A stretch of DNA of 64,000 nucleotides from assembly GCA_903909505.1 (NCBI GenBank), contig CAIVVZ010000022.1, positions 4,908 to 68,907 of the forward strand, written 5' to 3'. The notes beneath the pieces were generated by a model. The model had not been told where the DNA came from and ran no database searches. It saw nothing but the letters and a program-made list of their open reading frames with translations. The stretch is from an uncultured Desulfobacteraceae bacterium. GTDB taxonomy: Bacteria > Desulfobacterota > Desulfobacteria > Desulfobacterales > Desulfatirhabdiaceae. A program made the position numbers and the translations under genes. Below are positions 10,936 through 45,478 of the stretch, piece after piece (within the stretch, counting starts at the first letter, position 1; each line of letters begins with the position of its first letter).

Positions 10936-10961
10936 TTCTTTTTGTATCGTTCTTTCGCGTT

Positions 10962-12218: not shown

Positions 12219-12260
12219 GACAGCTTTGCAATATATTTTGAAGCTGTCCCTTTTTGTTTC
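12219..12260 (+). terminator. Terminator/attenuator-like hairpin in the 5' leader of the Nramp-related gene
   Basis: gacagctt-(14 nt)-aagctgtc is a perfect 8-bp stem, followed by cctttttgtttc. It ends 33 nt before the GTG start at 12293 (RBS agaggtg). Confidence 0.5.
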
Positions 12261-12292
12261 ATGCATTACCTGACCGATGAAAGAGGTGTCCC

Positions 12293-13564: not shown

Positions 13565-13576
13565 GAAGGAGGCGCC

Positions 13577-13750
13577 ATGCTGAAAGGATTTTTATTGAAT
13601 AATTTTTCCAAGATCCGCGAGATTAACCGTAAATATGCAAAACCCAATGTGGAGATGTCCCGATGGGTCAAGGCGACACTTCTGTTTTTGCGTCTGTATC
13701 TGATTTTTCTGGTAGGCCTGCTGCTCTACAAATTTATGACAATGATCTGA
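13577..13750 (+). CDS. 57-aa single-pass membrane protein, not in the supplied ORF track
   Basis: ATG at 13577 follows aggagg (13567-13572). Translation: MLKGFLLNNFSKIREINRKYAKPNVEMSRWVKATLLFLRLYLIFLVGLLLYKFMTMI. There are 12-13-nt gaps to both neighbours. Confidence 0.55.
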   Translation: MLKGFLLNNFSKIREINRKYAKPNVEMSRWVKATLLFLRLYLIFLVGLLLYKFMTMI

Positions 13751-13763
13751 TGGGAGAATCGCC

Positions 13764-21389: not shown

Positions 21390-21677
21390 GACTGGATGCC
21401 ATATCCGGCTAAGGGGCTATCTGGATAGAAAATTTGTATTTTCTCAAACAAAAATATACGGGTTTTGGTATGGGGAGGCAAGACAAGACTCAGGAAACAC
21501 TAATGGTTTATGTGCTGATGGAAGTGATTGTGGTATAGGTGTTCTTTCGGCTGGAAAACCTCGAAAATGTAATGCTATATATGCGGGTGATGTTTGGGTT
21601 TGCCAAGGGAGACTGAATTGTTCAATCCAAATAGTATTTCAACAAAATTACCCACTATAGACAGCGAGAAATCGTTT

Positions 21678-23888
21678 ATGAAAAACACGACTGAGCATCC
21701 TCTGCGATGCCAGGCAGTAATTCCGCATGTCATCGTAATTCTATGGCTGATCTACCTTGGTACTATGATATGGCAACATGACGTTCAAAGCGTACAGACT
21801 CCTCATCACGATCCTTTGACGTATATGGAAAAAGCCATGAATTTCTGGAAGGCTGTGGATCAAGGAAAACTGTTTAACCCTTTGAATATTGAGCCAACGG
21901 CTCGACCCCCTGGAACCATTTTGATGTCTTACCCATTTGGTTTTTTATTCGATTATAAGGGATTCCTCTTTCGATCCGTTTTTCTTCCGATATTGTGCAT
22001 TGTCATTGCCGTTTATATGGCAGCAGGGATACCTCGGACATCTTCTGAGGGGTGGGGTATGGCGGCAGTAACCATCCTTTTTTCTGCTATTCCGATGTTT
22101 TATAATTTTGATTGTAATGAGATTAATCCCGGGTCAACGCACTGGGGTCTGGTTGACAATTTTCAGGCCGGTATCGCCGCACTGGCGGCTGCAGGATTTG
22201 TAAAAAGCCTGAAGGCGCGATCGCTGGTCTGGTTGATGTGGGGAGCATTTTGCGGTTCATTTACGCTATTGATCAAACCATCCGGCCTTATGATTATGGC
22301 CCTTCTAACTGCAACATGGTTAATTGTCGTTATTGTGGAATGGTTGTGGGCAAGGAAATATCAACAATCCAACTCAGATTTGCATCGTTATGTGGTCATC
22401 GGCGGAATCCAGACTTTCCTGATTTTCTCCGTTGTCGTTCTCCTCTGCTTTTTTTCGAATTATTTTTCGATAGAAAACTTCGCATATGCCAAACGCGCAA
22501 TGAAAGTAATGGGAGATGTGTTGAAAGTTCCACCTCTTCAAATTTTATCTTTGTTGTTTGGCAGTGCCGGGATTGCATTTGTTTTGTGGGTTCTTGGGAA
22601 AGTCGTGCTAAGTATCTATTATTGCTTCAGTCGCAATGACAGGTATAACCCTTTATCGGCAAAAAAGGTTGGGTTGCTGTTGAGCACGCCTGTCATCTGG
22701 AGCCTGGGCGTCTGGTATTGGCTGGTGGTTCAGACTGGTGGAAATCAGGTTAGATATTTCTATCCATTTTTTCTGATGGGCGCGGTTTGTATGATTCCGA
22801 TGTCCCTGCATATCTTGCAGTATAGCCATCGTTGGATTCGCCTGGCCGAATTTGTTCTGTGTTTTTTGCCAGCGCTCAATATTGGGGCACTGCTGGCGCT
22901 GGAGTCTCCGTCAATTCAATGGCAGTGGCTTACCGGGGTGAGTGTCTCTGTTGGAAAAGATCGGGAAGAAGTGAATCAGGCTTATGCATTTCTGGATGAA
23001 TTGAGAAGGCGGAATATGAGTGCGAATCTCTATTCGTTTTATTTAGGCGCTCTACCAGATATTTTTGTAACTGTTGGTATATATGAGGGAATGGTAAATC
23101 CCGATCTTCCTGTTTTTAAAACGGTTCTATCGGTAGATTGGGTGCGCGGTTTCATTATCAGGACGGATCAGCTTCTGGATGTAGATTTCATTCTTATTAG
23201 AAAAGATTTGGATTTGCTATCCGAAAAGCTTTTTGATCGACAAATTGATCCATATTTTTCAGAATGTATCGTTTTTCAGGCATGGCTTTGCGGATTGAAC
23301 GAGAGCGCTGGTGTAAAGACTGTATCAGATGGAAGGGTGTTGCAATTGCTGGAAATTATTGATAGAAAAATGTTTGCATATGCCGTCGAATCTTTTGTGG
23401 CAGCGCACTCTTGGCGTCCTGAGTTTATAGCGGCAAATTCACAGCGGCAATGGTCGAACGAGGCGGAAGTATCCGGCTATGCTGGGGATACTGCTGCGAA
23501 AGAACTCGATTTCGAGGGGATATATAGATTACATGTGCTGTCGCTTCGCCGTACAGACACAGGCCTGAAAGTGGAATTATGGTGGGAAGAATTGCGTCAT
23601 GAAGATGCGAACAGACAGCGGATTGTGTTTTTTCATCTTGTCGATCAGTCCGGTAAAATTCTCCACAATCTATCCTTGCCCTTGGATAAGTATGATCCAC
23701 CATTCGACAACCGAAGATGGCGTTATGGATCCGTAACTTTTGATCAACCCCTACCTAACGAAGCGACTTCGCTGGCTTTTGGGATATTCCGTCCAATAAA
23801 CGGCAATGAGTTTTTGAAGCCCGACAAAGGGGTGCGTGACTGGGGAGGAATAAGGGTTCTTGTCCCAATACCTGCCGGTGGTTCCTGA
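21678..23888 (+). CDS. Large polytopic membrane protein, probable GT-C fold glycosyltransferase (ArnT/PMT_2-like) with a C-terminal soluble domain
   Basis: About 450 aa of TM helices with the loop-1 acidic motif HHDPLTY, RPPG and KPSG. The C-terminal domain has the LKVELWWEE..IVFFHLVD..G pattern seen in GT39/83-like proteins. Start taken at MKNTTEH. Confidence 0.55.
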   Translation: MKNTTEHPLRCQAVIPHVIVILWLIYLGTMIWQHDVQSVQTPHHDPLTYMEKAMNFWKAVDQGKLFNPLNIEPTARPPGTILMSYPFGFLFDYKGFLFRSVFLPILCIVIAVYMAAGIPRTSSEGWGMAAVTILFSAIPMFYNFDCNEINPGSTHWGLVDNFQAGIAALAAAGFVKSLKARSLVWLMWGAFCGSFTLLIKPSGLMIMALLTATWLIVVIVEWLWARKYQQSNSDLHRYVVIGGIQTFLIFSVVVLLCFFSNYFSIENFAYAKRAMKVMGDVLKVPPLQILSLLFGSAGIAFVLWVLGKVVLSIYYCFSRNDRYNPLSAKKVGLLLSTPVIWSLGVWYWLVVQTGGNQVRYFYPFFLMGAVCMIPMSLHILQYSHRWIRLAEFVLCFLPALNIGALLALESPSIQWQWLTGVSVSVGKDREEVNQAYAFLDELRRRNMSANLYSFYLGALPDIFVTVGIYEGMVNPDLPVFKTVLSVDWVRGFIIRTDQLLDVDFILIRKDLDLLSEKLFDRQIDPYFSECIVFQAWLCGLNESAGVKTVSDGRVLQLLEIIDRKMFAYAVESFVAAHSWRPEFIAANSQRQWSNEAEVSGYAGDTAAKELDFEGIYRLHVLSLRRTDTGLKVELWWEELRHEDANRQRIVFFHLVDQSGKILHNLSLPLDKYDPPFDNRRWRYGSVTFDQPLPNEATSLAFGIFRPINGNEFLKPDKGVRDWGGIRVLVPIPAGGS

Positions 23889-23951: not shown

Positions 23952-25385
23952 ATGGCTTTACTTGAAAATGAACATGAAATGTATTGCAAGCGCCGCGCCG
24001 ATCACTGGAACGCGCTGGTCAATCGTCAGTCAGGCTTGTTTTCTTTACATTATCACAGGCGGTTGATAGAAATCTATCGTCATGTGATTGGCGAGTGTGA
24101 CAGCATTCTCGAACTGGGGTGCGGCCAGGGGAAACTTCTCGATGCGCTCAACCCGAAACGGGGTGTTGGGGTGGATATCTCAAAGCAGATGATCGATGAG
24201 GCGCGGATTCGTTATTCGAAATTTCATTTTATTTGTGCTGATTCTCAGACATGCGATCTGGGCGATTCGACGTTTGATGTCGTCATCATTTCTGATTTGT
24301 TGAATGATCTGTGGGATGTACAGGCAACCCTGGCACATATCAGACGGTACTGCAATGAACACACCCGTGTCATCTTCAATGTTCAAAGTCATCTGTGGGA
24401 ATATCCACGTAGATTGGCCGAATATTATCGAATTGTTACATCAAATATGCCTCAGAACTGGCTTACGCCGGTCGATGTCGATAACTTGGCCAGGCTTGCC
24501 GGATTCGATCTGATTCGACATTGGGAAGAGATTTTATGTCCGGCACCTATTCCATTTGTGGCAGCCCTGTGCAATCGTGTTCTGGTGAAGATGCCTATTT
24601 TTAGAGTCGCAGCTCTAACCAATTTCTACATTATGCGGGCGATCGATTTTACGCAGAAATTGACAGAACCCTCTGTTTCGGTTGTGATTGCAGCCAGGAA
24701 TGAAGCGGGGCACATAATCGAGCTCTTGAATAGAATTCCTAAAATGGGATCCAGGACTGAAATAATTTTTGTCGAGGGAAATTCATCGGATGACACCTTC
24801 AATACGATCAAAAATGCAATTTCTCATTTGTCCCCCGCCGATTATCGGTTAATCAGGCAGCCAGGAAAAGGGAAGGGGGATGCGGTACGTGCGGGATTCG
24901 AAATCGCAACAGGTGATATGCTTATGATTCTGGATGCTGACATGACTGTACCTCCGGAAGATCTGCCCCGATTTTATGCTGTACTGGCAAGCGGTCTGGG
25001 TGAATTTGCCAATGGCGTTCGCCTGGTTTACCCAATGCAGGGTGGATCGATGCGGTTTTTTAATTTGCTGGGAAATAAATTTTTCAGTTGGGTATTCAGT
25101 TGGTTGTTGGGGCAGCCGATTCGAGATACCCTTTGCGGAACCAAAGTTTTATGGGCTGGTGATTATCGCAGAATTGCGGCGGGTCGAAACTATTTTGGAG
25201 ATTTTGATCCGTTTGGAGATTTTGATTTGTTATTTGGAGCCTCCCGACAGAATCTTAAAATCATTGAGGTGCCTATCCGGTATCAGACCAGGCGATATGG
25301 AGAAACGAATATCCATCGCTGGAGTCATGGATGGCTACTTCTCAGGATGGTTGTATTTGCAGCACGGCGACTAAAATTCAAGTGA
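23952..25385 (+). CDS. Fusion of a class I SAM methyltransferase with a GT2 glycosyltransferase (DPM1/GtrB-like polyprenyl-phosphate sugar synthase type)
   Basis: N-terminal half: ILELGCGQGKLL. C-terminal half: VSVVIAARNEAGHI, FVEGNSSDDT, GKGKGDAV, LDADMTVPPEDL. Confidence 0.8.
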   Translation: MALLENEHEMYCKRRADHWNALVNRQSGLFSLHYHRRLIEIYRHVIGECDSILELGCGQGKLLDALNPKRGVGVDISKQMIDEARIRYSKFHFICADSQTCDLGDSTFDVVIISDLLNDLWDVQATLAHIRRYCNEHTRVIFNVQSHLWEYPRRLAEYYRIVTSNMPQNWLTPVDVDNLARLAGFDLIRHWEEILCPAPIPFVAALCNRVLVKMPIFRVAALTNFYIMRAIDFTQKLTEPSVSVVIAARNEAGHIIELLNRIPKMGSRTEIIFVEGNSSDDTFNTIKNAISHLSPADYRLIRQPGKGKGDAVRAGFEIATGDMLMILDADMTVPPEDLPRFYAVLASGLGEFANGVRLVYPMQGGSMRFFNLLGNKFFSWVFSWLLGQPIRDTLCGTKVLWAGDYRRIAAGRNYFGDFDPFGDFDLLFGASRQNLKIIEVPIRYQTRRYGETNIHRWSHGWLLLRMVVFAARRLKFK

Positions 25386-26164
25386 GGCGTCTTGTGTTTA
25401 ATCGACTGAAAGCAGCTTTGGCCCATCCTCTGACCAGAGATCTATCCATAGACGATCCTGAAACCACTGATTTGCGGGCTGAAATTATTCGTGAAAAGGC
25501 TTTTTTAAGACGTATTTATCAGACTTGGTATCGTTTGTTGATTGAGAATATCCCTGCAGGAGAGGGTCAGGTTGCAGAAATTGGGTCTGGCGCGGGATTT
25601 TTGAAAGAATTATATTCGACGGCAATCACATCTGAGGTTTTTTATTCGGTTAACATTGATATCGTCTATAATGCCATATCGATGCCATTTAAAGCGGAAT
25701 CATTACGAGCTCTTTTACTTGTTGATGTGTTACATCATATTCCTGATCCGGGCGCATTTTTCTCTGAAGCCATGCGTTGTGTCAAAAGTGGGGGACGATG
25801 CCTTATGGTGGAGCCGTGGAATACTGGCTGGAGTCGATTGATTTACAACCATTTGCATCATGAATCTTTTGATGTGAATGGAGAATGGATAATCCCCATC
25901 ACAGGACCACTTTCTGGAGCCAATGGGGCCTTGCCATGGATATTATTTGAACGTGACCAGAAAATCTTTTCCAGGCGATTCCCAGAGTGGAGAATTTCAG
26001 GCATTACTCCCATGATGCCTCTGGTATATCTATTATCAGGAGGTGTCTCCCTTCGCTCTATTTTCCCAGACTGGACATATCCTTTATTTCGTAGAGGAGA
26101 AACATCATTTGGTTTTGAAAAAAAAGCAGCAATGTTTGCGCTAATCATTCTTGATCGCATTTAA
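25382..26164 (+). CDS. SAM-dependent methyltransferase (type 11-like)
   Basis: AEIGSGAGFLKE and LLLVDVLHHIPDP. A GTG at 25382 overlaps the previous stop (GTGA). The track ORF starts at 25331 inside the upstream gene. Confidence 0.7.
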   Translation: MRRLVFNRLKAALAHPLTRDLSIDDPETTDLRAEIIREKAFLRRIYQTWYRLLIENIPAGEGQVAEIGSGAGFLKELYSTAITSEVFYSVNIDIVYNAISMPFKAESLRALLLVDVLHHIPDPGAFFSEAMRCVKSGGRCLMVEPWNTGWSRLIYNHLHHESFDVNGEWIIPITGPLSGANGALPWILFERDQKIFSRRFPEWRISGITPMMPLVYLLSGGVSLRSIFPDWTYPLFRRGETSFGFEKKAAMFALIILDRI

Positions 26165-26495
26165 GTTTGATGGACACTAAGGTGATAAGAGGGGATCGAA
26201 GAATGTTATATTCAAATGCCGGTTATAATTGTCGCGAAAATCGGTGTTCAAGTAATCCAGTATGTGCAATGTCTAATAACGAGTTGTTTTAATGAAATAT
26301 CCTGTTAAGGTTGCAGAATTTTGGGGTGGAAAAACAAAAAAATAAGCCAGATGCGGTCGAGTGCCATTGGACCGACTCCGAACTGATCATGAAGTATTAT
26401 ATTCATCCGGCAAAGAATGCTCTTCTGGACTCTGGGATACTTATTTCTCAGGCAATGGAACTTGTTGTTAAAGACCAGCTATAAAGGAGTTGTAG

Positions 26496-27287
26496 ATGAA
26501 TTTAGAATACATAGATATGAGCACTGAAAAAGAGAAATTAATGTTGGAGTATCCGCAGGAATCGTTAGAGTTCAATTTGCTTAAGAAGGTTGAAAGCACA
26601 ATATCTCATAAAGATGATATGTACGCAGGAAATGTCGCACATTATTTTAAGGTCGGTTTGTCTGCAATTCAGTGTATCGACAGTTCCATCAGCAACATTG
26701 AAAACCCCAAGATTAATAATATACTTGATATGCCTTGTGGTTATGGGAGAGTGCTGAGGTTCTTATGCCGACGATTTCCAAATGCAAATCTCACAGGAAT
26801 GGATATAGATGAAAACGGAATCGATTTCTGTACGCATACTTTTGGGGTTAAGGTAATCCATTCTAAAAAGAAACTAGACTTATTGACTTTAGGGAGTAAG
26901 TTCGACCTAATCTGGTGCGGCTCATTATTAACACATATAGAGACGATATTTGCAGTTGATCTGCTTCATTTTTTCGATCGGCACCTTTCTGTTGGTGGGC
27001 TTCTCATTTTCTCTTCGCACGGTAACTCTGTTTGTGAAGATATTAAAGATGGCAAAAAAACTTATGGGCTGGATGAAGGGGGAGTCTCGCAATTAATCCG
27101 TTCTTATGCAGAATCAGGATATGGCTACGCCAATTATCCAGGGCAAGCGGACTATGGTATTTCCGTTACCTCAGCAGAATGGTTGCGAGGTCAATTCAAT
27201 AAAATTCAAGGTTGGAAAGAGGTCTATTGTAAAGAGAGAGGATGGGATAACCATCAAGATATTTTCTGTATTCTGAAAAACTTTTAA
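26496..27287 (+). CDS. Class I SAM-dependent methyltransferase
   Basis: ILDMPCGYGRVLRFL (motif I) and DLIWCGSLLTHI. Very AT-rich codon usage. Confidence 0.7.
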   Translation: MNLEYIDMSTEKEKLMLEYPQESLEFNLLKKVESTISHKDDMYAGNVAHYFKVGLSAIQCIDSSISNIENPKINNILDMPCGYGRVLRFLCRRFPNANLTGMDIDENGIDFCTHTFGVKVIHSKKKLDLLTLGSKFDLIWCGSLLTHIETIFAVDLLHFFDRHLSVGGLLIFSSHGNSVCEDIKDGKKTYGLDEGGVSQLIRSYAESGYGYANYPGQADYGISVTSAEWLRGQFNKIQGWKEVYCKERGWDNHQDIFCILKNF

Positions 27288-27299
27288 GTGTTTCTCATT

Positions 27300-27766
27300 T
27301 TCTAAATTGATCCGGTCTACTCGACAAATCCATGAATGTTTTTCATCGGCTGCCAGATGCTGGGGTATATCATCAGTGTTTCTGATGGTTGTCCCAACAA
27401 TACTGTTTCGGCCAAGTGATTGTTCGATTCTATACCAATACGAGGGATCTCTACCAAATGCATAGCTCAAGGCCCAAAATGGAACATTAAACTTCCGAAG
27501 GAAAAGCACCTTTTCGACTTCATCTGTCATTCCAGTCATACATGGCAATAAAATGAGGGACGGATGGTATATGCAATGCCTGCGATTTCTATTCTACGAA
27601 TCGGGACAGACTGCTTTTTGGGGTGATAGATATCCTTCATTTGATATCCTGTAGAGATTTCAGGTGGAAATAGTTCCGGAAATAGCGCAATCTTTTCATC
27701 GATACATTTTCGGAAATCAATCGGGTCAGTGATATTTGCGTGATAAATTTCTTGAGAAAACGGCAA
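27300..27766 (-). pseudogene. Frameshifted, 3'-truncated transposase-like remnant (possibly ISKra4-like; family recalled from memory, unverified)
   Basis: Two frames join near 27540: ...IAGIAYTIRPSF / MPCMTGMTDEVEKVLFLRKFNVPFWALSYAFGRDPSYWYRIEQSLGRNSIVGTTI...LAADEKH. Homology stops where the convergent methyltransferase gene ends. Confidence 0.4.
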
Positions 27767-28178
27767 ACATGTGGTTCTATTTTCTCAGGTAGCGGATTCT
27801 GTTTCTGCATTTCCCATATAGTTAGAGGCCTCCTTGGCGGGTATAGTCTCTAACCATATAAAATTATTTATAAAAAGTATAGTGAAATATTTACAATAAT
27901 ATCAATATGATGTGTTTTGGCCTATTGCCGTCCAGAATAAATTATGTGCAAAAAAATCAGCCTCCCCAAAATCCGATATATTCAGAAAAGATTAGAGCTG
28001 ATGCCTGAGAGGCTGCAATCATTAACCGGATGGCCTTGGATATTAGGATCATCTTGATCGCAATATGGAATAAATGGGAATGCACCCAGTGTCGCTTTTT
28101 GGATTGATCCATCTGAAGACAGGCCTTGTTGTGTTATCGAAATAAATCTACACGAAAATCGGTGTTAATAAGACAATT

Positions 28179-30305
28179 ATGAAAACAGAAGACGAGTTTA
28201 TACCATTTCATGCTTCAGATTTAACCGGAAGGCGCGTGCTTGTGTTGGCGCCTCATCCGGATGACGAAACGCTAGGTTGCGGAGGTACTATCGCGACTCA
28301 TGCTGCTGCAGGTGATCCCGTTAAGGTCGTTTTTTTAACAAATGGCAGTCAGGGCGATATCAAATCTCAATTTGATTGCTCGGTTTATGTTCAAATGCGA
28401 AATCAGGAAGCAACTGCCGCCTGTGTTTTGTTGGGTATTTCAGATACTGAGTTTTGGAATTATGAAGATCGGAGTTTATCCGGAGCACAAGGGATACTGG
28501 TTCAACTATTAGACCTTCTTAATACATATAAACCCGATATGGTTTATGTGCCGTCACCTTTGGAATTTCATCCGGATCATCGCGCAGCATGTTTTCTTGT
28601 TTATAGTGCTGTGCAGTCAGGGTGCCATGAATTTGATATCGCTTTTTATGAAATCAATCAACCTCTCTTTGTCACTGCATTGGTGGATATCAGCAGTGTG
28701 GTGGACAAGAAAAAAAATGCCATTCTTGCTTATCAAAGTCAATTGTCACAAAGACCCTATGATAAATTCATTCTTGGCCTTAATCGTTTTCGATGTCTGA
28801 CACTCCCGAAGTGTGTAACCCATGCCGAAGGTTTTTCCATCTGGTCTTCAACCATCATCCTGCGCATGGGCATATACGGGTTGCCACTGATAAATCCTCA
28901 GCGATTATCCCCTGATGCGCACGAATCAGGCCCACTTGTTTCCATAATTGTTCGCACGCAGGACAGACCCCATCTTCTCATTAATGCATTGCGTTCGATA
29001 GTGCAGCAAACCTATTCGAATATTGAAATTATTGTTGTTAATGACGGTGGAATGAGTGTCAGGGATATTGTTGAATTTACGGCAGGAAGCATACCCTTTA
29101 TCTACATAAACCATGAAACCGTTCAAGGTCGATCTGCTGCAGCAAACAGTGGGATAAAGGCGGCGCGAGGGGGCTTTTTAAACTTTCTTGATGACGATGA
29201 TGTTTTTTATCCGTATCATGTAGAAACTTTGGTATCTTATATACTAAAAAATAATACTCAGATTGTATATTCAGGCGTATTAAATGTATATTATGACAGT
29301 AACTCGTCAGATCCGGATCATCGGGTAAAAGAGGAAGTCGTCTTTAATAAGGAGTATAGTCCGGAGCTTCTCCTTTTTGAAAATTATATCCCCTTGATGA
29401 GTGTATTGTTTTCAAAAGGGATTCTCTCTAAGGTTGATGGATTTTCTGAGGAGCTGACGCTGTTTGAAGATTGGGATTTCTGGATTCGCGTATCAAGGCG
29501 TTATACGTTTTGCCATGTTGATAAGGTAACGGCTGAATACCGGATATATGGATCAACAGATTTCGAGGCGTCTCATCGAAAAAGATACCATTACGATGAG
29601 TCCAGAGCAAAGTTGTTTGATCGGAATCATTCGTTTATTACAGGAAGAGCATGGGTGATCTATCTGAATGAAGGACCGGTTGAGCAATTGAAGGATAGCT
29701 TGAAAGATTGCCGCCAACACATAGCGAATGTTGAGGATATGTTAAAGGATCGTCAGCAGCACATAGCGACGATTGATGAAATGCTGGAGGATAGGCAACA
29801 GCATATCGTGAATATCGAAAAAAGGTTAAAGGATAGCCAGCAGCACATAGCGAATGTTGAGGATATGTTAAAGGATCGTCAGCAGCACATAGCGACGATT
29901 GATGAAATGCTGGAGGATAGGCAACAGCATATCGTGAATGTCGAAAAAAGGTTAAAGGATAGCCAGCAACACATAGCGAATATGGAAGATGAGTTAAGGG
30001 ATCGTCAGCAGCACATAGCGAATGTGGAGGATGAGTTAAGGGATCGTCAGCAGCACATAGCGAATGTGGAAGATGAGTTAAGGGATCGTCAGCAGCACAT
30101 AGCGAATATCGAAGGAAGGTTAAAGGATAGCCAGCAGCACATAGCGAATGTGGAAGATGAGTTAAAGGATAGTATGCAACATATTGTTAATGTTGAACAT
30201 ATATTAATAGATCGCCAGCAGCATATAGCGAATTTAGAGGAGTTGTTGAGGGATCGCCAGCAGCACATAGCGAATCTTGAGGCGTTATTGAAGGATTACC
30301 AATGA
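28179..30305 (+). CDS. Tri-partite protein: PIG-L/LmbE-type deacetylase + GT2 glycosyltransferase + C-terminal repeat coiled coil
   Basis: VLVLAPHPDDETLGCGGT (LmbE). VSIIVRTQDRPHLLINALRSIVQQTYSNIEIIVVNDGG and FLDDDDVFYPYH (GT2). Fourteen 14-aa repeats occupy the last 201 residues. Confidence 0.85.
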   Translation: MKTEDEFIPFHASDLTGRRVLVLAPHPDDETLGCGGTIATHAAAGDPVKVVFLTNGSQGDIKSQFDCSVYVQMRNQEATAACVLLGISDTEFWNYEDRSLSGAQGILVQLLDLLNTYKPDMVYVPSPLEFHPDHRAACFLVYSAVQSGCHEFDIAFYEINQPLFVTALVDISSVVDKKKNAILAYQSQLSQRPYDKFILGLNRFRCLTLPKCVTHAEGFSIWSSTIILRMGIYGLPLINPQRLSPDAHESGPLVSIIVRTQDRPHLLINALRSIVQQTYSNIEIIVVNDGGMSVRDIVEFTAGSIPFIYINHETVQGRSAAANSGIKAARGGFLNFLDDDDVFYPYHVETLVSYILKNNTQIVYSGVLNVYYDSNSSDPDHRVKEEVVFNKEYSPELLLFENYIPLMSVLFSKGILSKVDGFSEELTLFEDWDFWIRVSRRYTFCHVDKVTAEYRIYGSTDFEASHRKRYHYDESRAKLFDRNHSFITGRAWVIYLNEGPVEQLKDSLKDCRQHIANVEDMLKDRQQHIATIDEMLEDRQQHIVNIEKRLKDSQQHIANVEDMLKDRQQHIATIDEMLEDRQQHIVNVEKRLKDSQQHIANMEDELRDRQQHIANVEDELRDRQQHIANVEDELRDRQQHIANIEGRLKDSQQHIANVEDELKDSMQHIVNVEHILIDRQQHIANLEELLRDRQQHIANLEALLKDYQ
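29700..30302 (+). repeat. Coding tandem repeat, 42-bp unit x 14 plus a partial unit
   Basis: The unit encodes L(K/R/E)D(R/S)QQHIANVED(E/M). 29718-29843 and 29844-29969 are a 126-bp duplication with 124/126 identity. 29971-30096 holds three nearly identical 42-mers. Confidence 0.95.
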
Positions 30306-30308
30306 TGG

Positions 30309-31676
30309 GTGCCTTTTTCTCAGATTGTCGCTGATTTATTAACATTGTCCATAAAACTGCAGATGTATGCAGTTGAATATGAAAGCTTGGATATGATTTT
30401 AAGACATGATGATAGCCCTTTGAAAATTTGTATTGTTTCCCGAGAATATCCCCCGGAAACGCTATGGGGGGGGATTGGAACATTTACATATAATCTGGCA
30501 CACGGGTTGAAGAATATAGGTCATGAAGTGGATGTCGTTGCATTTTCACCGTATCAGAATTCTCTTTCCGAAGATAATGGTATCCGAATCCATCGAATTG
30601 TGTCTCCTGAAATGCCGTTTCTGAAAAAAACGCTATGGGAATATGCAACCGTAGCGCTTTCACCGTTTGCATATTGGTACAGCAAGAAAATATCCGCTAA
30701 AATTGAAGAACTGTCTAAAGAAAAAAAATTCGATATTATAGATTTCCCCGAGCATATTGGAGAAGGATTCTGTACGATTCGAAAAAATCTTTACCCGACT
30801 GCCGTCAGGCTATTTACTCCGCTTTCACTGATCGGTAGACTTGGCATGAACAAGGTAAGCAATAGCATGGACTATTATTTTATTGGTCTTTTGGAAAAAT
30901 CTTCAATTCGAAGAGCAACAGCTGTTAACTCTCCTAGCGATAACCTTGCTGGAATGGTTAAACAAAATTTCAAAATAAACCGAAAAATTGAAATTATTTA
31001 TAATCCCATTGATACAGAGAAATTTTCACCAATGGGTGATATGCATTTATCGCAGGCAAAACACCTTCGAGTCGTTTTTGCAGGTCGGCTCGAAGATCGA
31101 AAAGGGGCGCATATCCTTGCTCAGGCGATACCAAAAGTCCTTCGAGCTGTCCGTAACACTCAATTTGACATTCTGGGGAGTGATTGTGCAGGGGTTTTTG
31201 GATATCCATCCATGAAAGCGTATATGATAGATGTGTTGAGAGATCACGGAGCGGTGGACAATGTCAACTTTATTGATCCAATATCTTATGAAGCATTGCC
31301 GGGTTATTATGGGAAAGGGGATGTCTCAGTTGTTCCATCATTGTATGATAATTCTCCTTATACCTGCCTTGAAGCTATGTCCTGTGGCTTGCCCGTAATT
31401 GGGACATCTGCTGGGGGAATGCCTGAATACATAGACAATGGCATAAATGGCATTGTCATTCCTCCAAACGATTCCGATGCTCTGGCCGGTGCACTGATCG
31501 ATCTGCTGAGTCATCATGAAAAAAGACAGGATTTTGCAAAAAAAGCGCGGAAAAAATCTCTAAATATATTTAAAAAAGAAATTGTTTCAGAAAAAATGGT
31601 TACATTTTATCGCAAAACAATATTACATCATAAACGTAGAACTCAGCCCCAATATTTTGGTGATATCGCAAAGTAA
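30309..31676 (+). CDS. GT4 family glycosyltransferase
   Basis: ICIVSREYPPETLWGGIGTFTYNLAHGL N-terminal domain, and the C-terminal EAMSCGLPVIGTSAGGMPEYI motif. The start is uncertain (GTG 30309, ATG 30363 or 30393). Confidence 0.85.
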   Translation: MPFSQIVADLLTLSIKLQMYAVEYESLDMILRHDDSPLKICIVSREYPPETLWGGIGTFTYNLAHGLKNIGHEVDVVAFSPYQNSLSEDNGIRIHRIVSPEMPFLKKTLWEYATVALSPFAYWYSKKISAKIEELSKEKKFDIIDFPEHIGEGFCTIRKNLYPTAVRLFTPLSLIGRLGMNKVSNSMDYYFIGLLEKSSIRRATAVNSPSDNLAGMVKQNFKINRKIEIIYNPIDTEKFSPMGDMHLSQAKHLRVVFAGRLEDRKGAHILAQAIPKVLRAVRNTQFDILGSDCAGVFGYPSMKAYMIDVLRDHGAVDNVNFIDPISYEALPGYYGKGDVSVVPSLYDNSPYTCLEAMSCGLPVIGTSAGGMPEYIDNGINGIVIPPNDSDALAGALIDLLSHHEKRQDFAKKARKKSLNIFKKEIVSEKMVTFYRKTILHHKRRTQPQYFGDIAK

Positions 31677-31689
31677 CCAATAATGTTCC

Positions 31690-32967
31690 ATGAATATTCC
31701 GGGATATGGATTAATGGCAATATTTTTCAGATCAATTCTTAATCGCTTTAAACCAATTCGGTTTTTCAGGTCGCCAACGCCAAGTGTTTTGCCAAATATT
31801 TTGCATATCACGCATTCCTGGGGAGGGGGGATAGAAAGATATCTGTCGGACCTGAAAGAAGTTCTTGAAGACCACTACAATTTCTTTTTATTGAGATCTA
31901 ATGGTCGAGATATGATATTGGAATATACTAAGCAGGGGAAACAGCAAAAAGTTGTTTTCAAATTAGCCTTTCCTGTTACGATTTTGGATTTTTATAATTT
32001 GGACTATCAACGGATAATAAGCAACATTCTCTTGGAATATAACATTCGGATTGTTCACATTGAAAGTATGGTAGGACATACTTTTGATGTGTTTCGGAAT
32101 TCCAGGGAAAAGAGTATACCCGTTATTCTTACTGTTCATGATTTTTATTATATTTGTCCAACATTCCATCTGGTAGATAAAATGGGTGTTTTTTGTAATG
32201 GGTGCAAACTTGGAGATGAAAGGGAAGGTTGCCTGTTGGATCACCCCTATGTAAGTTGCCCTGATTTTGATGATGACATGCTTTTCAACTGGAGAAATAC
32301 TTTTCTGAAAGAAATCTCCTGTGTTGATTTATTTATTTTCCCTTCTGTATCCGCTAAAAATATTTTTTCAACTTATTATTTGATAAACGATGCTAAAATT
32401 CGGATTATTTCACATGGGTCCAATGCGTGCAATGAAACGTTACCCCCGTTAAGTAAGGCTCATGAATCGTTGCGGGTGGGTATATTGGGTTCAATATACA
32501 TGCACAAAGGAGAAGCTCTGCTTGGAAAACTTCTCGATAACATGTTGAAAGACGACATACATTTTTATTCATTTGGTCATTCTAATTTGAAATCCAGGAA
32601 CCTGACCCATTTTGGATCTTATACCCAGGAGGAATTGCCCGGATTGTTAAGGGATCATCCAGTAGATGTCATGTTGTTGCTTTCAACGTGGCCGGAGACA
32701 TTTAGTTATACGCTGAGTGAGTCCATTGCTGCAGGAGTTCCACCAATCGTTACCAACCTGGGTGCTCAGAAAGAACGCATTGAGGACAGCCAGATCGGTT
32801 GGATTGTTGACTATAAGAGTCCTGAAAAAATCGTTGCATTATTAAGATTTCTTCGACAGCATAAAGAGGAGATTGATCATCGTCGTCGTCGGATAAAAGA
32901 ATATCATCTAAAATCAATGGAAGAGATGAAAGAAGATTATGAGAAAGTATATTGTTCTTTTATATGA
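31690..32967 (+). CDS. Glycosyltransferase, GT4-like C-terminal domain
   Basis: LLLSTWPETFSYTLSESIAAGVPPIVTNLGAQKERIED resembles the GT4 E-x7-E region. The N-terminal half is divergent. Confidence 0.65.
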   Translation: MNIPGYGLMAIFFRSILNRFKPIRFFRSPTPSVLPNILHITHSWGGGIERYLSDLKEVLEDHYNFFLLRSNGRDMILEYTKQGKQQKVVFKLAFPVTILDFYNLDYQRIISNILLEYNIRIVHIESMVGHTFDVFRNSREKSIPVILTVHDFYYICPTFHLVDKMGVFCNGCKLGDEREGCLLDHPYVSCPDFDDDMLFNWRNTFLKEISCVDLFIFPSVSAKNIFSTYYLINDAKIRIISHGSNACNETLPPLSKAHESLRVGILGSIYMHKGEALLGKLLDNMLKDDIHFYSFGHSNLKSRNLTHFGSYTQEELPGLLRDHPVDVMLLLSTWPETFSYTLSESIAAGVPPIVTNLGAQKERIEDSQIGWIVDYKSPEKIVALLRFLRQHKEEIDHRRRRIKEYHLKSMEEMKEDYEKVYCSFI

Positions 32968-33073
32968 TTGATTGGCTAAATTTTTAAGTAATGTTGTGAA
33001 AAGTTCTCTATACAATTTTTCGAAAATCTGTGGTCCGTAAAAAATGTCCTAATGGATATTGGGAATGATTGAA

Positions 33074-33961
33074 TTATCTCAGGAATTCAATCATTCGAGT
33101 GGTCATTGGATTTTTATCATCTGGAAAATATTCATCCAATAACAGAAGTGTGACGATCGTTTCCATGTTGACATAATGATTTTTCCTGAGAAAATATATA
33201 AGATCAATCAAATTTTCTGTTGGCTGCAGATATTTGAGATGATGGGCGATCAGCCAGTTCACCTCAAGGCGCACTTTTGCCTCACTACCTGTTTCAAGAA
33301 CTGTATTGGATTCGTGAATTCGGTAGCGGAGAAGGCATTTTTTTAATAATCCAACTTTGAATTGCCTTGAGATACGCAGGAGCATGTCCCAGTCATGGGC
33401 ATATCTCAGTTTTTTAAATTGCCCAATGACATCAAAGGTGGTTTTTTTTATAAAAAAATTGGAGGTGGTGATAGCAATGTTTTGGGCAAAAGCGCATTTC
33501 AGAAAGTCGTTGTTTTCATAAAGTTTCAATGCATCCGTGTACCAGTCCTGCCAGGCAATCGTGTGGGGTGTAGACATATCTGAGACTGACTTGCCATCGC
33601 GGTTTATTCCTTCAACCAAAGTTAGAACGGCTGTTACATCCGGATATTGTTTTATGAAATCAAAGCATTGAATCAGACGGTCTGGAGAATATTCGTCATC
33701 GGAATTCAGGATGCTGATGTATTCCCCTTTTGCTATCGCAATTCCCTTATTAATTGTATAATGAGCTCCTTGGTTTTCCTGGGTGATGTAACGAATTCTG
33801 GGGTCTTTAAAATGTAATATTTCTTTTTCCGTGCGATCTGTAGAGCCGTCGTTAATGATGATAAGTTCAAAATTTCCATAAGATTGTTTCAGGACACTTT
33901 CTATTGAAAGGGCGATATATTTTTCGTGGTTGAATGCGGGTATAATTACGCTGATATCCAT
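33074..33961 (-). CDS. GT2 family glycosyltransferase
   Basis: ISVIIPAFNHEKYIALSIESVLKQSYGNFELIIINDGSTDRTE and ILNSDDEY. The start is at MDISV behind a GGAG RBS. It is the only intact minus-strand gene in the island. Confidence 0.85.
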   Translation of the reverse strand: MDISVIIPAFNHEKYIALSIESVLKQSYGNFELIIINDGSTDRTEKEILHFKDPRIRYITQENQGAHYTINKGIAIAKGEYISILNSDDEYSPDRLIQCFDFIKQYPDVTAVLTLVEGINRDGKSVSDMSTPHTIAWQDWYTDALKLYENNDFLKCAFAQNIAITTSNFFIKKTTFDVIGQFKKLRYAHDWDMLLRISRQFKVGLLKKCLLRYRIHESNTVLETGSEAKVRLEVNWLIAHHLKYLQPTENLIDLIYFLRKNHYVNMETIVTLLLLDEYFPDDKNPMTTRMIEFLR

Positions 33962-34088
33962 AATGATTATCTCCATAAAGAAATGTTATCGGATGCATGT
34001 CAGGCTCTGAATTCTTCCAGTTGATTTATATTTATCATATTTCATCTTTTTATTTCAAGACAATGCAAACTTGTTTGGATTGATTACA

Positions 34089-35024
34089 ATGAACATACTC
34101 GTTTTGGGTGGAGATGGTTTTATAGGTTCACATGTGGTGGATCAACTGGTATCAATGGGTCATGAGATTACAGTGTTTGACCGTTTTCCCTACCGGACAT
34201 CCAGAAATCTTGAACATCATCGGGGCGGCATTCGTTTTATTTCAGGAGAATTTCAAAATCGGAATGACCTTGTTAAGGCATTGAGCGAAAAAGACATTGT
34301 ATATCATTTTGTGAGCGCAACCAGTCCAGCGGAAAGCTGGAATGATCCGCTGATAGAAGTTGAAGAGAGCATCAGGTCATCAATTATGTTCTTCGAGCTG
34401 GCAGTTCGCCAGGGAGTTAAAAAAATCGTTTTTCCTTCTTCGGGCGGTACAGTATATGGGCCCCAGAATCTGCCGGTTGATGAAAATACACTTCCCCGGC
34501 CATTATCGCCTTATGGTATTGCCAAGCTGACAACAGAGCATTTTCTCAATTATTTCCGGGTGCATTATGGAATAGCCTCCGATATTTATCGTATTGGCAA
34601 TCCTTATGGTTCTCGGCAACCGGTGATGCGCCCTCAGGGCGTAATCGCTGTATGGATGCATGAAATATTAAATGGATCGGAAATTCAGATATATGGAGAT
34701 AACACAACGCTTAGAGACTATATATATATTAAAGATGTGGCGTATTTGATGTCCCATTCACTGATAAACCTTATGTCTTCGGACGTCTATAACCTGGGAT
34801 CTGGCGTTGGAACATCCATTATGCAGTTATTGAATATTTTTCAGCAGGTTGTTGATATTCCGTTTCAGTACCGTATTCATGAAAAAAGACCTTCGGACAA
34901 TTCATCAATCGTTCTTGACAGTTTAAAGCTCATGAAGCTATTCCCCGGTTTCCGCTGTCAGAAACTAGAAGAAAGAATTGAAGAAACCTGGACCTATTTC
35001 AAAACGACTTTTCATAAAACCTGA
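34089..35024 (+). CDS. NAD-dependent sugar epimerase/dehydratase (SDR, UDP-hexose 4-epimerase-like)
   Basis: ILVLGGDGFIGSH and YGIAKLTTE (YxxxK). Confidence 0.85.
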   Translation: MNILVLGGDGFIGSHVVDQLVSMGHEITVFDRFPYRTSRNLEHHRGGIRFISGEFQNRNDLVKALSEKDIVYHFVSATSPAESWNDPLIEVEESIRSSIMFFELAVRQGVKKIVFPSSGGTVYGPQNLPVDENTLPRPLSPYGIAKLTTEHFLNYFRVHYGIASDIYRIGNPYGSRQPVMRPQGVIAVWMHEILNGSEIQIYGDNTTLRDYIYIKDVAYLMSHSLINLMSSDVYNLGSGVGTSIMQLLNIFQQVVDIPFQYRIHEKRPSDNSSIVLDSLKLMKLFPGFRCQKLEERIEETWTYFKTTFHKT

Positions 35025-35036
35025 TATTTCTTAAAA

Positions 35037-35186
35037 GGGGTAGTCGGTTAGCTCCTCCCAAAATGCGTCAACAACTTGCAATCAAAAGGTTTTTTGTGGA
35101 TGCTGGCTGGTTATGCTGTTAATGTTCAGTTTTTCGTGTGATTTCGGCTTATTTACTAAGATCCGGTGGAGCTAACCGACTACCCC
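35037..35186. repeat. 19-bp perfect inverted repeat separated by 112 nt
   Basis: ggggtagtcggttagctcc (35037-35055) and ggagctaaccgactacccc (35168-35186). The flanks extend the match with 2 mismatches. Confidence 0.9.
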
Positions 35187-35452
35187 ATTTTCTTAATAGG
35201 GTGCTGATTAATGTGGCATTTTTTGGACTTTCGAAAAATAGGGGAAAACCCTATATGCCACACCAAAAAGCTGTTGATCTTGGCAGGCTATTTGCTGAGA
35301 CCTGGCCTGTCATCCAGATGATCAATCACAATTGGTGGGTGGCTTAAACTGAAGTAAACCTTGCTTGAACTTCACCAACTCCAGGAGCTGTATACAGGAC
35401 TTCAATGACCATGATAACTGCTCAGCATGGCGTATGATATGCAATAAATAGG

Positions 35453-37702: not shown

Positions 37703-38661
37703 TATCTTCCACGCTCAGCCTGAAGAGATATATTCGGTACTGGAAGCATTTTGCGTTTCATCGCCTATGTAAAGGTAAGAACGGAATATCGGGACCGTTT
37801 GCTCCATTTGAAACCACCAGGATTGAATCCTTTAACGAATATGGCAATTATGTCCGATCCATGGCTGGCGAGTACGAAAGCCGGAATCTGACAGAGCAGG
37901 CGCTACTGGTCGAAAAGGAGCATTTTGTTGTACCGGGTTATTGCTTTGTGTGCAGCCAACCGGTTTCCTTTCTGGCGGATTACGCCTATGGGTTCAAGAA
38001 TGAGGATGGCCGCCGCATTCCCAACTGGCGGGAATGCCTGATTTGTCCAGGGTGTCGTTTAAACAACCGGATGCGAGCGGCCATTCATCTGTTCCAAGAA
38101 CTGTGTCGTCCTCGGTCCGACTGCTCTCTTTACATAACGGAGCAAACAACTCCAATGTTCAAGTGGCTCAATGGGGCTTTTGTAAATGTTGACGGCAGCG
38201 AATTTTTGGGATTAGACTGTTTTCCCGGATCAAAAAACACAAGGGGAATCCGACACGAAGATTTAAATAAACTGTCTTTTGCCGACGAACAATTTGATTT
38301 TGTCCTTTCCTTTGATGTTTTCGAACATATTCCAAGCTACAGGAAAGCTTTCAGTGAGTGCCGGAGGGTGCTCAAAAAGGGCGGAGCCTTATTTTTCACC
38401 ATTCCTTTTGATCTGCATTCCGCTCGAAACATCATCCGGGCTAAAATACTGCCGGACGGAACCACGAAGCATCTCATGCCGCCGGAATACCATGGAGATC
38501 CTCTGCGGGAAAGCGGATGTCTGTGCTTTCGTCATTTTGGATGGGAATGCCTGGAGGAATTGAGAAGTGAAGGATTTTCTGAGGTTGCCTGCTATCTTTA
38601 CTGGTCCCGGGAATACGGATATCTGGGCGGAGAACAGCTTCTCTTTCTATCAAGGGCTTGA
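37699..38661 (+). CDS. SAM-dependent methyltransferase (type 11-like) with an N-terminal Cys4 motif
   Basis: FDFVLSFDVFEHIPSYRKAFSECRRVLKKGGALFFTIP; also CFVCS...CPGC. ATGA overlap with the upstream gene. Confidence 0.75.
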   Translation: MISSTLSLKRYIRYWKHFAFHRLCKGKNGISGPFAPFETTRIESFNEYGNYVRSMAGEYESRNLTEQALLVEKEHFVVPGYCFVCSQPVSFLADYAYGFKNEDGRRIPNWRECLICPGCRLNNRMRAAIHLFQELCRPRSDCSLYITEQTTPMFKWLNGAFVNVDGSEFLGLDCFPGSKNTRGIRHEDLNKLSFADEQFDFVLSFDVFEHIPSYRKAFSECRRVLKKGGALFFTIPFDLHSARNIIRAKILPDGTTKHLMPPEYHGDPLRESGCLCFRHFGWECLEELRSEGFSEVACYLYWSREYGYLGGEQLLFLSRA

Positions 38662-38670
38662 GGAGGAAAA

Positions 38671-40832: not shown

Positions 40833-41156
40833 CAAACAATAACCGAAGAGAGATCCGGCTGATAATTTTTATATTTCAATCTGGAGCTTGTGAAGATATT
40901 TATTCGTAGCGGAATTGAACTTGATATTTTCAGATAATTATTGGAAAAGAGAATCGCTCACGGGTTTATCCTTTTTGTGTAGGTATTTTTGGCGAAGCAA
41001 CTCTATAAAGGTGTCTCCGCAAAAATCAATGATTATGATAGAGTGTTCCATCCCAATAGGAAGCTGCGATAGTGTATTGAATACGTTGTCATTCCAAGGT
41101 GTTTCGAAATAGCATGAGTTTTGATATGCGCATAAAACGGTAAGGACTTTTTTATT

Positions 41157-45366: not shown

Positions 45367-45478
45367 AAATCGTTATCCCCAAAACCCGTTTTACCCGGAA
45401 CACCCTGCTGAATCTTTCCGGTCAGATCTTTCTCTGGACAGTATGGATTATGCTGTGGATGATTGGGTTGACAAAAAA

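Follow-up and report, generated by a model that had tools for sequence, protein, structure and literature searches.

The 64-kb window analyzed here (the whole stretch of DNA, 64,000 nucleotides) contains a gene whose 3' end is built of tandem repeats, and the question it raises is whether the tail encoded there could act as a molecular ruler for a glycan and how its length changes. Coiled-coil rulers are the accepted explanation of chain length in ABC-transporter-dependent O-antigen and related glycans. Insertions in the coil of WbdD raise the modal chain length and truncations lower it (reviewed in PMC5082667), and an extended coiled coil is a characteristic marker of terminator and ruler proteins; in some of these the coil is the last element (PMC11231755). 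The evidence for rulers rests so far on a few proteins of enterobacteria that were engineered to carry insertions or deletions. A preliminary description of the locus had compared the tail to the rulers WbdD and WbbB and had suggested that changes in repeat number tune it in the manner of a contingency locus. We found that the tail is real and that, judged by analogy, it resembles known molecular ruler stalks; by the same analogy, its reading as a coiled-coil spacer is plausible. The positions of all features are collected in Table 1.

Table 1. Features of the repeat-tailed gene and its neighbors (positions in the window)
Feature	Position	Strand	Evidence or remark
PIG-L + GT2 + repeat-built helical tail, 708 aa	28179..30305	+	ORF listing, Pfam domains
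PIG-L/LmbE-type de-N-acetylase domain, aa 21-144	28239..28610	+	PF02585, E = 9.6e-32
GT2 (GT-A fold) glycosyltransferase domain, aa 255-455	28941..29543	+	PF00535, E = 1.2e-23; also PF10111
Start of predicted tail helix before the repeats, aa 500-507, VEQLKDSL	29676..29699	+	AlphaFold2 helix from residue 500
Tandem array, 14 units	29700..30287	+	Each a 14-residue double heptad; consensus L-K-D-R-Q-Q-H-I-A-N-V-E-D-E
126-bp block A, nested duplication	29718..29843	+	124/126 versus block B; 126/126 in L001
126-bp block B, nested duplication	29844..29969	+	In L004, a single copy with both block-B variants
Units 8-10, near-identical 42-mers	29994..30119	+	Unit identity matrix; units 8 and 9 agree at 41/42
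Units 12-14, differentiated terminal units	30162..30287	+	Orthologous by position to the final three units in the 87%-identical lineage
Partial unit LKDYQ + TGA stop	30288..30305 (LKDYQ, 30288-30302)	+	Stop and ~13 nt beyond conserved between lineages
GT4 glycosyltransferase gene, downstream	30309..31676	+	Pfam; starts 4 nt past the stop
Second downstream GT4 gene	31690..32967	+	Pfam

The start codon of the 708-aa ORF is backed by homologues that open with MxTEExLIPYH, and the part of the protein preceding the tail carries two catalytic modules. The first scored 110.6 bits against PF02585 (curated cutoff, 28.2) and belongs to the PIG-L/LmbE family; the family alignment shows no variation in its PHPDDE and HPDH motifs or at H26, D28-D29-E30, and P132-D133-H134, and the matches of the domain in the PDB by sequence or fold include diacetylchitobiose deacetylase and BshB. 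The second scored 84.4 bits against PF00535 (curated cutoff, 23.3), which places it in GT2; its DDDD motif (D338-D341) is conserved in the family alignment, and its PDB matches include PglI/AvpGT and chondroitin polymerase. Searches of the PDB by sequence and by fold returned only these separate LmbE and GT-A matches and no relationship to WbdD or WbbB. Every NCBIfam match to the full-length protein fell far below its cutoff, giving no characterized orthologue, and our literature search yielded no paper joining LmbE, glycosyltransferase, coiled-coil, and Wzt. The gene product is a cytoplasmic two-domain glycan-assembly enzyme. Transfer of GlcNAc followed by the action of a PIG-L-type enzyme is known from the bacillithiol, mycothiol, and GPI anchor pathways, and by analogy the head probably installs GlcNAc and then deacetylates it to GlcN.

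Counting in frame from the first base of the array, we obtained 14 units of 42 bp, a 5-codon partial unit, and the TGA stop; the 196 + 5 = 201 codons close the ORF, exactly as the preliminary description had counted. The reported identity of the two nested 126-bp blocks was reproduced, and the three 42-mers in positions 29971 to 30096 that had been called almost identical agree pairwise at 40 to 41 of 42 positions. Tandem Repeats Finder detected the array at period 42 (13.4 copies, score 489) and at period 126 (4.4 copies, score 587) and found no second tandem array within the 64-kb window, and a six-frame scan of the window found the repeat peptide motif nowhere else. An origin by duplication and unequal recombination, as had been suggested, is supported by the near-identity of the 126-bp blocks and by the arrangement of the units in relatives, in which interior units differ between lineages and end units are orthologous. 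The repeat sequences also hint that intra-array conversion may have occurred.

All copy numbers given here rest on metagenome assemblies, and one explanation of the array is that assembly created it or its copy number. The window is part of a metagenome-assembled genome (the protein lies on an 80,050-bp NCBI/ENA contig), such arrays differ in copy number between assemblies, and a perfect 252-bp duplication would probably be uncountable with 150-bp reads alone. Against this explanation, an independent metagenome contig from a different sample (L001), 98.7% identical over 22 kb and thus 1.3% diverged, carries all 14 units in unchanged order and differs by substitutions only, which makes invention of the array by assembly unlikely. 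Moreover, the array is in frame, its ends and stop are conserved, and an orthologous array is present in a third lineage that has been assembled twice. Taking both sides together, we regard an assembly artefact as highly improbable; the existence of the array is secure, and doubt is limited to the exact copy number. The count of 14 in the window is well supported, as a number drawn from assemblies and not from long reads.

Comparison with closer and more distant relatives revealed other copy numbers. A contig that is 99.8% identical to the window (L004) has 11 units, exactly one 126-bp block fewer (alignment gap at positions 29779 to 29904), but it is a gapped scaffold, and both an N gap and a cluster of mismatches fall inside the same gene, so that a real allele and a short-read assembly collapse are equally likely. 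In the 87%-identical lineage, two independent assemblies gave identical genes with 11 units. Its terminal units are positional orthologues of those in the window (W12 to L9, W13 to L10, and W14 to L10/L11, with W for the window and L for that lineage), whereas the interior units vary in number and order. These comparisons show that blocks have been gained and lost in the course of evolution. A pattern scan of metagenome-contig DNA for further alleles returned the two known contigs and one repeat-less chance match, and a word-index search of proteins, with only the tail as query, returned a single match (P0121). Copy number differs between lineages, 14 versus 11 units, and the lone variant among close relatives may be a real allele or a collapsed one.

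Could the array be a contingency-like locus, in which frequent in-frame changes in repeat number within populations retune a ruler and with it the modal length of an ABC-exported polysaccharide? The perfect and near-perfect 126-bp and 42-bp copies lend themselves to slipped misalignment, and L004, if real, is the kind of variant expected. Near-identical proteins with the same repeat type also differ by whole blocks (1204/1344/1484/1694 aa in one cluster; 956 versus 1096 aa for a Legionella cincinnatiensis methyltransferase), and there is a precedent in NeuO, where tandem repeats encode heptads, the repeat number varies naturally, and enzyme performance is graded accordingly (PMC3046976). However, the 14 units of the window are unchanged in L001 despite the divergence of the surrounding DNA, the two assemblies of the 87%-identical lineage agree on 11 units, and the block-length series all come from short-read or draft assemblies (e.g., a k141, MEGAHIT-style contig), which probably misreport the lengths of such repeat genes. 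Contingency loci have short, slippage-prone units, whereas the unit here is 42 bp long, with a 126-bp higher-order block, and is not a simple-sequence repeat. The window locus, moreover, has neither Wzm/Wzt nor a tether (see below). We consider rapid switching of this kind quite unlikely, and the contingency idea of the preliminary description is weak.

The tail itself has the character of a coiled coil. Its hydrophobicity shows a dominant period of 3.5 residues, uninterrupted over 201 residues, which contain no proline and one glycine. Within the unit, positions 1 and 8 are always L and I, respectively, and position 11 holds V, I, L, or M in 14/14 units. The expected two heptads per unit were borne out, with the refinement that position 4, one of four core positions per unit, is polar (R, S, or C) in all 14; the surface residues D3, Q6, H7, N10, and E12 are invariant. 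AlphaFold2 predicted residues 500 to 707 to be entirely helical, in a monomer run that says nothing on oligomeric state. The predicted helix gives the window protein an extended coil joined to a catalytic module, as in proteins of the WbdD/WbbB type. Pfam assigned the tail to no specific family, giving only sub-cutoff generic coiled-coil noise (Rod_CreS, DUF745, and ATG16), and precomputed domain lists likewise gave generic noise (CCDC39 and CRWN_N). In the AlphaFold2 model the tail doubles back as a hairpin, the break lying at residues 579 to 591 and having low confidence, and an antiparallel arrangement, half as long, would be an alternative. The residues of that break include no helix-breaking residue.

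A GT4 gene lies directly downstream of the ORF in the window, L001, and L004 alike and is a probable operon partner. A scan for promoters and terminators between 27200 and 34100 gave counts near the shuffled expectation and was uninformative. The two genes share a reading frame, with TGA-TGG between them, and we considered two histories for this junction. Read-through, or a recent nonsense mutation that split the tail from the GT4 module, was rejected because the stop and ~13 nt beyond it are kept in the 87%-identical lineage, in which the downstream sequence is unrelated. Fission of a PIG-L-GT2-coil-GT4 fusion was also set aside: the GT4 enzyme of the window is only generically like the GT4 modules fused in two homologues (P0071 and P0085), with 25 to 26% identity spanning the C-terminal half. 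No ABC2_membrane protein and no Wzt were found in the 64-kb window, and when the window was searched by tblastn with the Wzm and Wzt of relatives, the only match was a generic one, to the ATPase of a binding-protein-type transporter. The sole ABC transporter in the window is of this binding-protein-dependent type; a candidate MOP/MatE-like flippase is present.

The window protein belongs to a large, uncharacterized family combining PIG-L, GT2, and a coil, with more than 3600 matches, mostly in Desulfobacterales and Nitrosomonas; a scan of species-representative genomes returned nothing closer than ~58% identity, and the relatives are Desulfobacterales-like. The usual tail is nonrepetitive, ~100 aa long, and ends in a basic segment or continues into fused GT modules (GT2-like, GT4, or RgpF). 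Tail length was measured in 99 stand-alone homologues and is 68 to 131 aa in most of them (median, ~101); the 213-aa tail of the window protein is twice the median. A basic C-terminal segment (net charge of at least +4) is present in 96/102 stand-alone homologues and is missing in the window lineage alone (net charge of -2 to +1); the last 30 residues of the window protein have a net charge of -1, compared with a median of +6. The window protein instead ends in LKDYQ, at a stop conserved in the sister lineage, and has neither a basic membrane-binding or polymerase-recruiting end nor a fused polymerase GT. For 39 relatives, 6 kb or more of sequence was available upstream; a Wzt-like ABC ATPase lies just upstream in 23 of them and no such gene is nearby in 16. 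Pfam identified ABC2_membrane and ABC_tran proteins (Wzm and Wzt) in two of the loci, L015 and L029, the latter also having Wzt_C. The WbdD/WbbB analogy thus stands for the family, with its Wzt-like neighbors, basic ends, and GT fusions, but not for the window locus, which lacks both Wzm/Wzt within 64 kb and the basic C terminus. One homologue (P0058) has a related 3-copy HIxNLE segment, and two others (P0007 and P0018) carry independent 49-aa (seven-heptad) duplications in the tail. The HIxNLE 14-residue unit is native to the coiled coil of the PIG-L-GT2 family.

Loss of the basic end and of the ABC-transporter neighborhood, which give ruler geometry its meaning, would fit a tail that serves only in oligomerization or scaffolding (forming a dimer or trimer or recruiting a neighbor), its length being a neutral by-product of expansion. 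Family tails ranging from 68 to over 200 aa, and a gene that travels as a single cassette between unrelated contexts, are likewise in keeping with this explanation. A short coil would suffice for such a role, however, and every length change observed (14, 42, 49, and 56 residues) is heptad phased; phase is always kept because the gained or lost units or 3-unit blocks are multiples of seven residues. Also, the terminal units keep their positional orthology, and the H-I-x-N-L-E core recurs in unrelated enzyme families, which, together with the invariant surface residues, suggests constraint beyond simple zippering. We think it doubtful that oligomerization is the whole explanation, while treating it as a serious alternative.

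Our preferred hypothesis is a glycan-assembly enzyme with a repeat-built coiled-coil spacer whose length changes on an evolutionary scale, and taken as a whole we judge it about equally likely to be right or wrong. The 201-residue heptad-phased helical segment was built by amplification of the 14-residue HIxNLE unit, and the array changes by whole units or 3-unit blocks, with its ends conserved. The tail may form a parallel homo-oligomeric coiled coil of ~30 nm, to which each unit would contribute ~2.1 nm and each 126-bp block ~6.2 nm. As a WbdD/WbbB-like spacer or stalk, it would hold the catalytic head and the binding partner of the conserved C-terminal units a fixed distance apart. Units 12 to 14 are a candidate docking end, and candidate binders are the putatively cotranscribed GT4 enzymes or another membrane-proximal assembly component. 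A block gained or lost could then alter the place at which the head acts on the growing glycan, or the chain length at which it does so. Such changes would probably arise by homologous or slipped recombination between the 42/126-bp repeats, between strains or over evolutionary time and not as a fast contingency switch. Points against the spacer hypothesis are the absence of Wzm/Wzt from the window, the lack of a basic C terminus, the polar core position, and the hairpin model.

The nearest parallels differ from the window protein in instructive ways. WbdD (E. coli O9a/K. pneumoniae O3), a kinase-methyltransferase chain terminator, likewise has an N-terminal head and an extended C-terminal coil, and most homologues of the window protein share its layout of a basic, probably membrane-associating end and adjoining Wzm/Wzt (PMC11231755, PMC5082667). 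Its kinase-methyltransferase head, however, has no sequence or fold relationship that we could find to PIG-L + GT2, and the window coil consists of near-identical tandem units, without the basic C terminus and without Wzm/Wzt in the window. WbbB (K. pneumoniae O12) and ORF6 (K. pneumoniae O7) have a terminator-coil-polymerase layout that is shared by the PIG-L-GT2-coil-GT members of the family, whereas the window protein ends right after the coil, with GT4 as a separate gene. In E. coli O101/O162, a methyltransferase also combines an enzyme head with a coil that ends the protein; its catalytic head differs, and the accessible part of the report proposes a WbdD-like ruler and describes no repeat-coded structure (PMC13168486). 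NeuO, the polysialic acid O-acetyltransferase of E. coli K1 encoded by the CUS-3 prophage, is also polysaccharide modifying and has heptad-coding tandem repeats. Its 7-nt unit is slippage prone and acts as a frameshift on/off switch, whereas the 42-bp unit is always in frame; the NeuO heptads are N-terminal and basic and form no coiled coil in the crystal structure, whereas the window repeats are C-terminal. In the secreted needle and hook rulers of the YscP/FliK type, internal duplications change the length of the measured structure, but these are neither enzymes nor coiled-coil stalks of glycan machinery.

With more than 3600 sequences, often adjoining Wzm/Wzt, the PIG-L + GT2 + coil family is a candidate new class of coil-bearing glycan-assembly enzymes. 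If copy number does vary among natural strains, these genes would offer a ready-made allelic series for testing rulers outside the enterobacteria, and repeat stalks would give evolution a simple way to adjust the length of surface glycans; the 14- and 11-unit arrays and the block-length series given above hint at such a natural series. A broader reading is that HIxNLE 14-residue repeats are a general, naturally length-polymorphic ruler module of glycan-terminating or -modifying enzymes (methyltransferases, sulfotransferases, and the PIG-L-GT2 family), in which block gain or loss (42 to 70 residues, ~6 to 10 nm) would set the modal length in each strain and the PIG-L-GT2 head would terminate chains by a new chemistry, capping them with GlcNAc that is then deacetylated to GlcN. 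We consider this unlikely. HIxNLE-type repeat tails do occur on S-adenosylmethionine (SAM) methyltransferases, sulfotransferases, and an FkbM methyltransferase, and one protein (P0124), a methyltransferase-HIxNLE coil-GT2 arrangement that mirrors ORF6 of O7, has its gene immediately behind those for Wzm and a Wzt_C-bearing Wzt.

The preliminary description of the repeat array (its units, their 42-bp length, the 126-bp duplication and the coordinates) was correct to the base. Positions 29718-29843 and 29844-29969 (blocks A and B) are identical at 124 of 126 positions, and 29971-30096 comprises three 42-mers that match one another at 40 to 41 of 42 positions. Tandem Repeats Finder, run on the 64-kb window, returned periods of 42 (13.4 copies) and 126 (4.4 copies) and no tandem array besides this one; the repeat peptide motif was not found elsewhere in the window in any of the six frames.

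Features of the repeat-tailed gene and its product
Feature	Location	Strand	Remark
Tail-bearing ORF, 708 aa	28179..30305	+	
Fourteen consecutive 42-bp units	29700-30287	+	In frame with the ORF; followed by a 5-codon partial unit (LKDYQ) and TGA
PIG-L/LmbE de-N-acetylase domain	aa 21-144		Within the N-terminal 500 residues
GT2 glycosyltransferase domain	aa 255-455		Within the N-terminal 500 residues

Residues L1, D3, Q6, H7 and I8 are invariant across the 14 units, position 11 is V, I, L or M in every unit, and position 4, the would-be core “d,” is R, S or C in all 14. Assigning L1 and I8 to “a” and position 11 to “d” would put H7 (g) and E12 (e) in the canonical g-e′ register for pairing. The coiled-coil character originally proposed for the tail was borne out: the hydrophobicity spectrum has its maximum at 3.5 residues, proline is absent and glycine occurs once, and AlphaFold2 (monomer, 40-sequence family alignment, mean pLDDT of 80.5) predicted helices at 500-578 and 592-707. 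A low-confidence break between these helices bends the model into a hairpin, which we read as the usual monomer artefact, although an antiparallel arrangement of the tail is still conceivable. An extended, parallel tail of 201 residues would span ~30 nm, with each unit contributing ~2.1 nm and each 126-bp block ~6.2 nm.

The PIG-L plus GT2 architecture is common to >3,600 proteins, the majority from Desulfobacterales-type MAGs, with Nitrosomonas and other members at about 35% identity; no characterized member was found in NCBIfam or the literature. The catalytic motifs PHPDDE, HPDH and DDDD are kept family-wide in the alignment. By both sequence and fold, the nearest solved structures are diacetylchitobiose deacetylase and BshB for the PIG-L domain and PglI/AvpGT and chondroitin polymerase for the GT2 domain; the same searches of solved structures gave no resemblance to WbdD or WbbB. 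Pathways in which a GlcNAc transferase is followed by a PIG-L enzyme make bacillithiol, mycothiol and the GPI anchor, and by analogy the head probably adds GlcNAc and then deacetylates it. That this product serves as a terminating cap is speculation.

Among 99 stand-alone members from the best 120 matches, the catalytic part is followed by a tail of ordinary, nonrepetitive helical sequence, mostly 68 to 131 aa long (median, about 101), versus 213 aa in the window protein. Net charge over the last 30 residues is at least +4 in 96 of 102 stand-alone members (for example, ...SSKGWLWLSRYRSLKIKLG and ...HLAYRAYRKIKDLMKHRG); the window protein and its two nearest relatives have the lowest charges of all, −2 to +1. 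In other members, a GT2-like, GT4 or RgpF(-HAD) module comes after the coil. Of the 39 relatives whose upstream sequence reaches at least 6 kb, 23 have a Wzt-like ABC ATPase (YSSGM signature) encoded on the same strand no more than 8 kb upstream, and Pfam identified ABC2_membrane and ABC_tran in a Desulfobacteraceae MAG (L015) and in Nitrosomonas oligotropha Nm75 (L029), with Wzt_C in the latter. In L015, a GspD-type secretin gene (3348-5624), an unusual neighbor for an ABC-type glycan export operon, directly precedes a Wzm-methyltransferase-Wzt-GT2-(PIG-L-GT2-coil) series. The Nm75 protein (9998-14599) is a 1,533-aa fusion of PIG-L, GT2, an unannotated stretch that is presumably the family coil, RgpF (rhamnan synthesis) and a HAD hydrolase, with Wzm and Wzt bearing Wzt_C 3 kb upstream.

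This layout of coil, fused GT modules and upstream Wzt-like ATPase is that of the terminator/ruler proteins described by the Whitfield laboratory, in which an extended coiled coil carries a catalytic head at its distal end and which in some cases are fused to polymerase modules and in others end after the coil (PMC11231755). In WbdD, coil insertions raise and truncations lower the modal chain length (PMC5082667). The ruler analogy drawn in the preliminary description is well founded for the family, with its coil, basic C termini and upstream ATPases, but a ruler role is not established at the window locus, where both the ABC transporter (neither Wzm nor Wzt is present in the 64-kb window) and the basic tether are absent. 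We view the window protein as a glycan-assembly enzyme of the coil-bearing kind, but with a catalytic head not described before, a repeat-coded stalk of unusual length and no evident tether.

When the tail alone was used as the query in a full HMMER search of 1.84 billion representatives, 633 matches reached an E value of ≤1e-3 and 84 reached ≤1e-10. The best share the 14-residue unit ((K/R)D-x-H-I-x-N-L-E-x-x-L), often in higher-order repeats of 28, 42, 56 or 70 residues. This HIxNLE unit builds the tails of SAM methyltransferases, sulfotransferases, an FkbM methyltransferase and a methyltransferase-coil-GT2 protein (P0124) whose gene directly follows Wzm and Wzt with Wzt_C and precedes two GT4 genes. 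A family member with a normal basic C terminus (P0058) has three such units ahead of it. The window array is therefore an amplified motif native to the family coil. Two paralogues from one Deltaproteobacteria MAG (P0007 and P0018, at L008 and L010) carry an independent 49-residue (seven-heptad) tail duplication, so heptad-phased tail expansion happened more than once in the family.

We then compared the array, which lies on a MAG contig, with four independent assemblies of the gene lineage (L001 to L004). The metagenome contig L001 is syntenic, with 98.7% identity over 22 kb, and shares all 14 units; its 126-bp blocks are identical at 126 of 126 positions. The two arrays differ by nine substitutions and no other changes; three share one unit offset, a hint of intra-array conversion. 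L002 and L003 carry an identical gene whose nonrepeat part shares 87.5% nucleotide identity with the window; it has 11 units and its own older duplication (36 to 38 of 42 positions). Unit types can be matched between the lineages at about the identity of the flanking gene. Units at the ends (the first one and the final three) are positional orthologues, whereas those between them vary in number and order. The array is therefore older than the lineage split and evolves by interior gain and loss. Block duplication and interior turnover agree with the proposed origin by recombination or slippage. The array has held at 14 units across 1.3% divergence. That constancy weighs against a contingency locus, for which the sole support is one ambiguous variant: the gapped scaffold L004 is 99.8% identical and lacks exactly one 126-bp block (11 units), the remaining copy having both block-B variants. 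The same gene bears an N gap and a mismatch cluster, so an assembly collapse is as likely as a real allele.

Lengths of HIxNLE-tailed proteins within clusters of at least 90% identity point the same way, with the same weakness that they are assembly based. P0124-cluster proteins (L088, 10001-14455) have 1,204, 1,344, 1,484 or 1,694 aa, differ by single coil blocks of 140, 210 or 280 aa, and are 99.5 to 100% identical elsewhere. Two Legionella cincinnatiensis methyltransferases (P0125/P0280), WP_058463749.1 (956 aa; draft) and WP_172465423.1 (1,096 aa; complete 4.04-Mb genome), match at 955 of 956 positions apart from one 140-aa block inside the coil. Both sets could be strain polymorphism or short-read collapse of the repeat. 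For the tuning of a polysaccharide enzyme by repeat number, the closest true precedent is NeuO, which differs in having a 7-nt slippage repeat rather than 42-bp units and in not being a coiled coil in its crystal structure (PMC3046976). Overall, the preliminary interpretation is partly supported. Most likely, the tail would form a homo-oligomeric coiled coil, a stalk holding the PIG-L/GT2 head away from a partner that binds the conserved C-terminal units; the length of this stalk would be set by recombination among heptad-phased repeats.

The host glycan cluster spans roughly 34 kb (about 17.6-51.9 kb of the window) and encodes RmlD, many methyltransferases, GT2 and GT4 enzymes, an acyltransferase, an FkbM methyltransferase and a MOP/MatE-like flippase candidate. 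The tail gene lies in a low-GC subregion (about 26000-36000; GC of 0.38 to 0.42 versus about 0.47 to 0.55 in the flanks), which suggests an acquired subisland. Two GT4 genes follow closely, with gaps of 3 and 13 nt. The first (GTG at 30309) shares the reading frame of the tail ORF, with only TGA-TGG between them (30303-30311), as in L001 and L004; this looks coincidental, because the post-stop sequence in the sister lineage L002 is unrelated. Nucleotide homology with L002 (28165-30318 versus 2784-4811) runs from 14 nt before the start codon to 13 nt past the stop, and the surrounding contexts are unrelated, as if the gene were exchanged between glycan clusters as a single-gene cassette. A 125-aa ORF without a Pfam or NCBIfam match (27171-27548, minus strand) fills the roughly 890-bp gap upstream. 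A 764-aa multipass membrane protein without a family match (21594-23888) adjoins a methyltransferase-GT2 fusion (23952-25385; best NCBIfam match AglJ, far below cutoff); the two may be a GT-C-like enzyme and polyprenyl-phosphate-sugar synthase pair for glycosylation outside the cytoplasm. Large multidomain transferases (GT2 plus GT4; 749 and 712 aa) lie among GT2, GT4 and methyltransferase genes at 35453-46693, where some proteins are weakly similar to PEP-CTERM/XrtA-system glycosyltransferases, and this second half of the cluster may be responsible for a polymer of its own.
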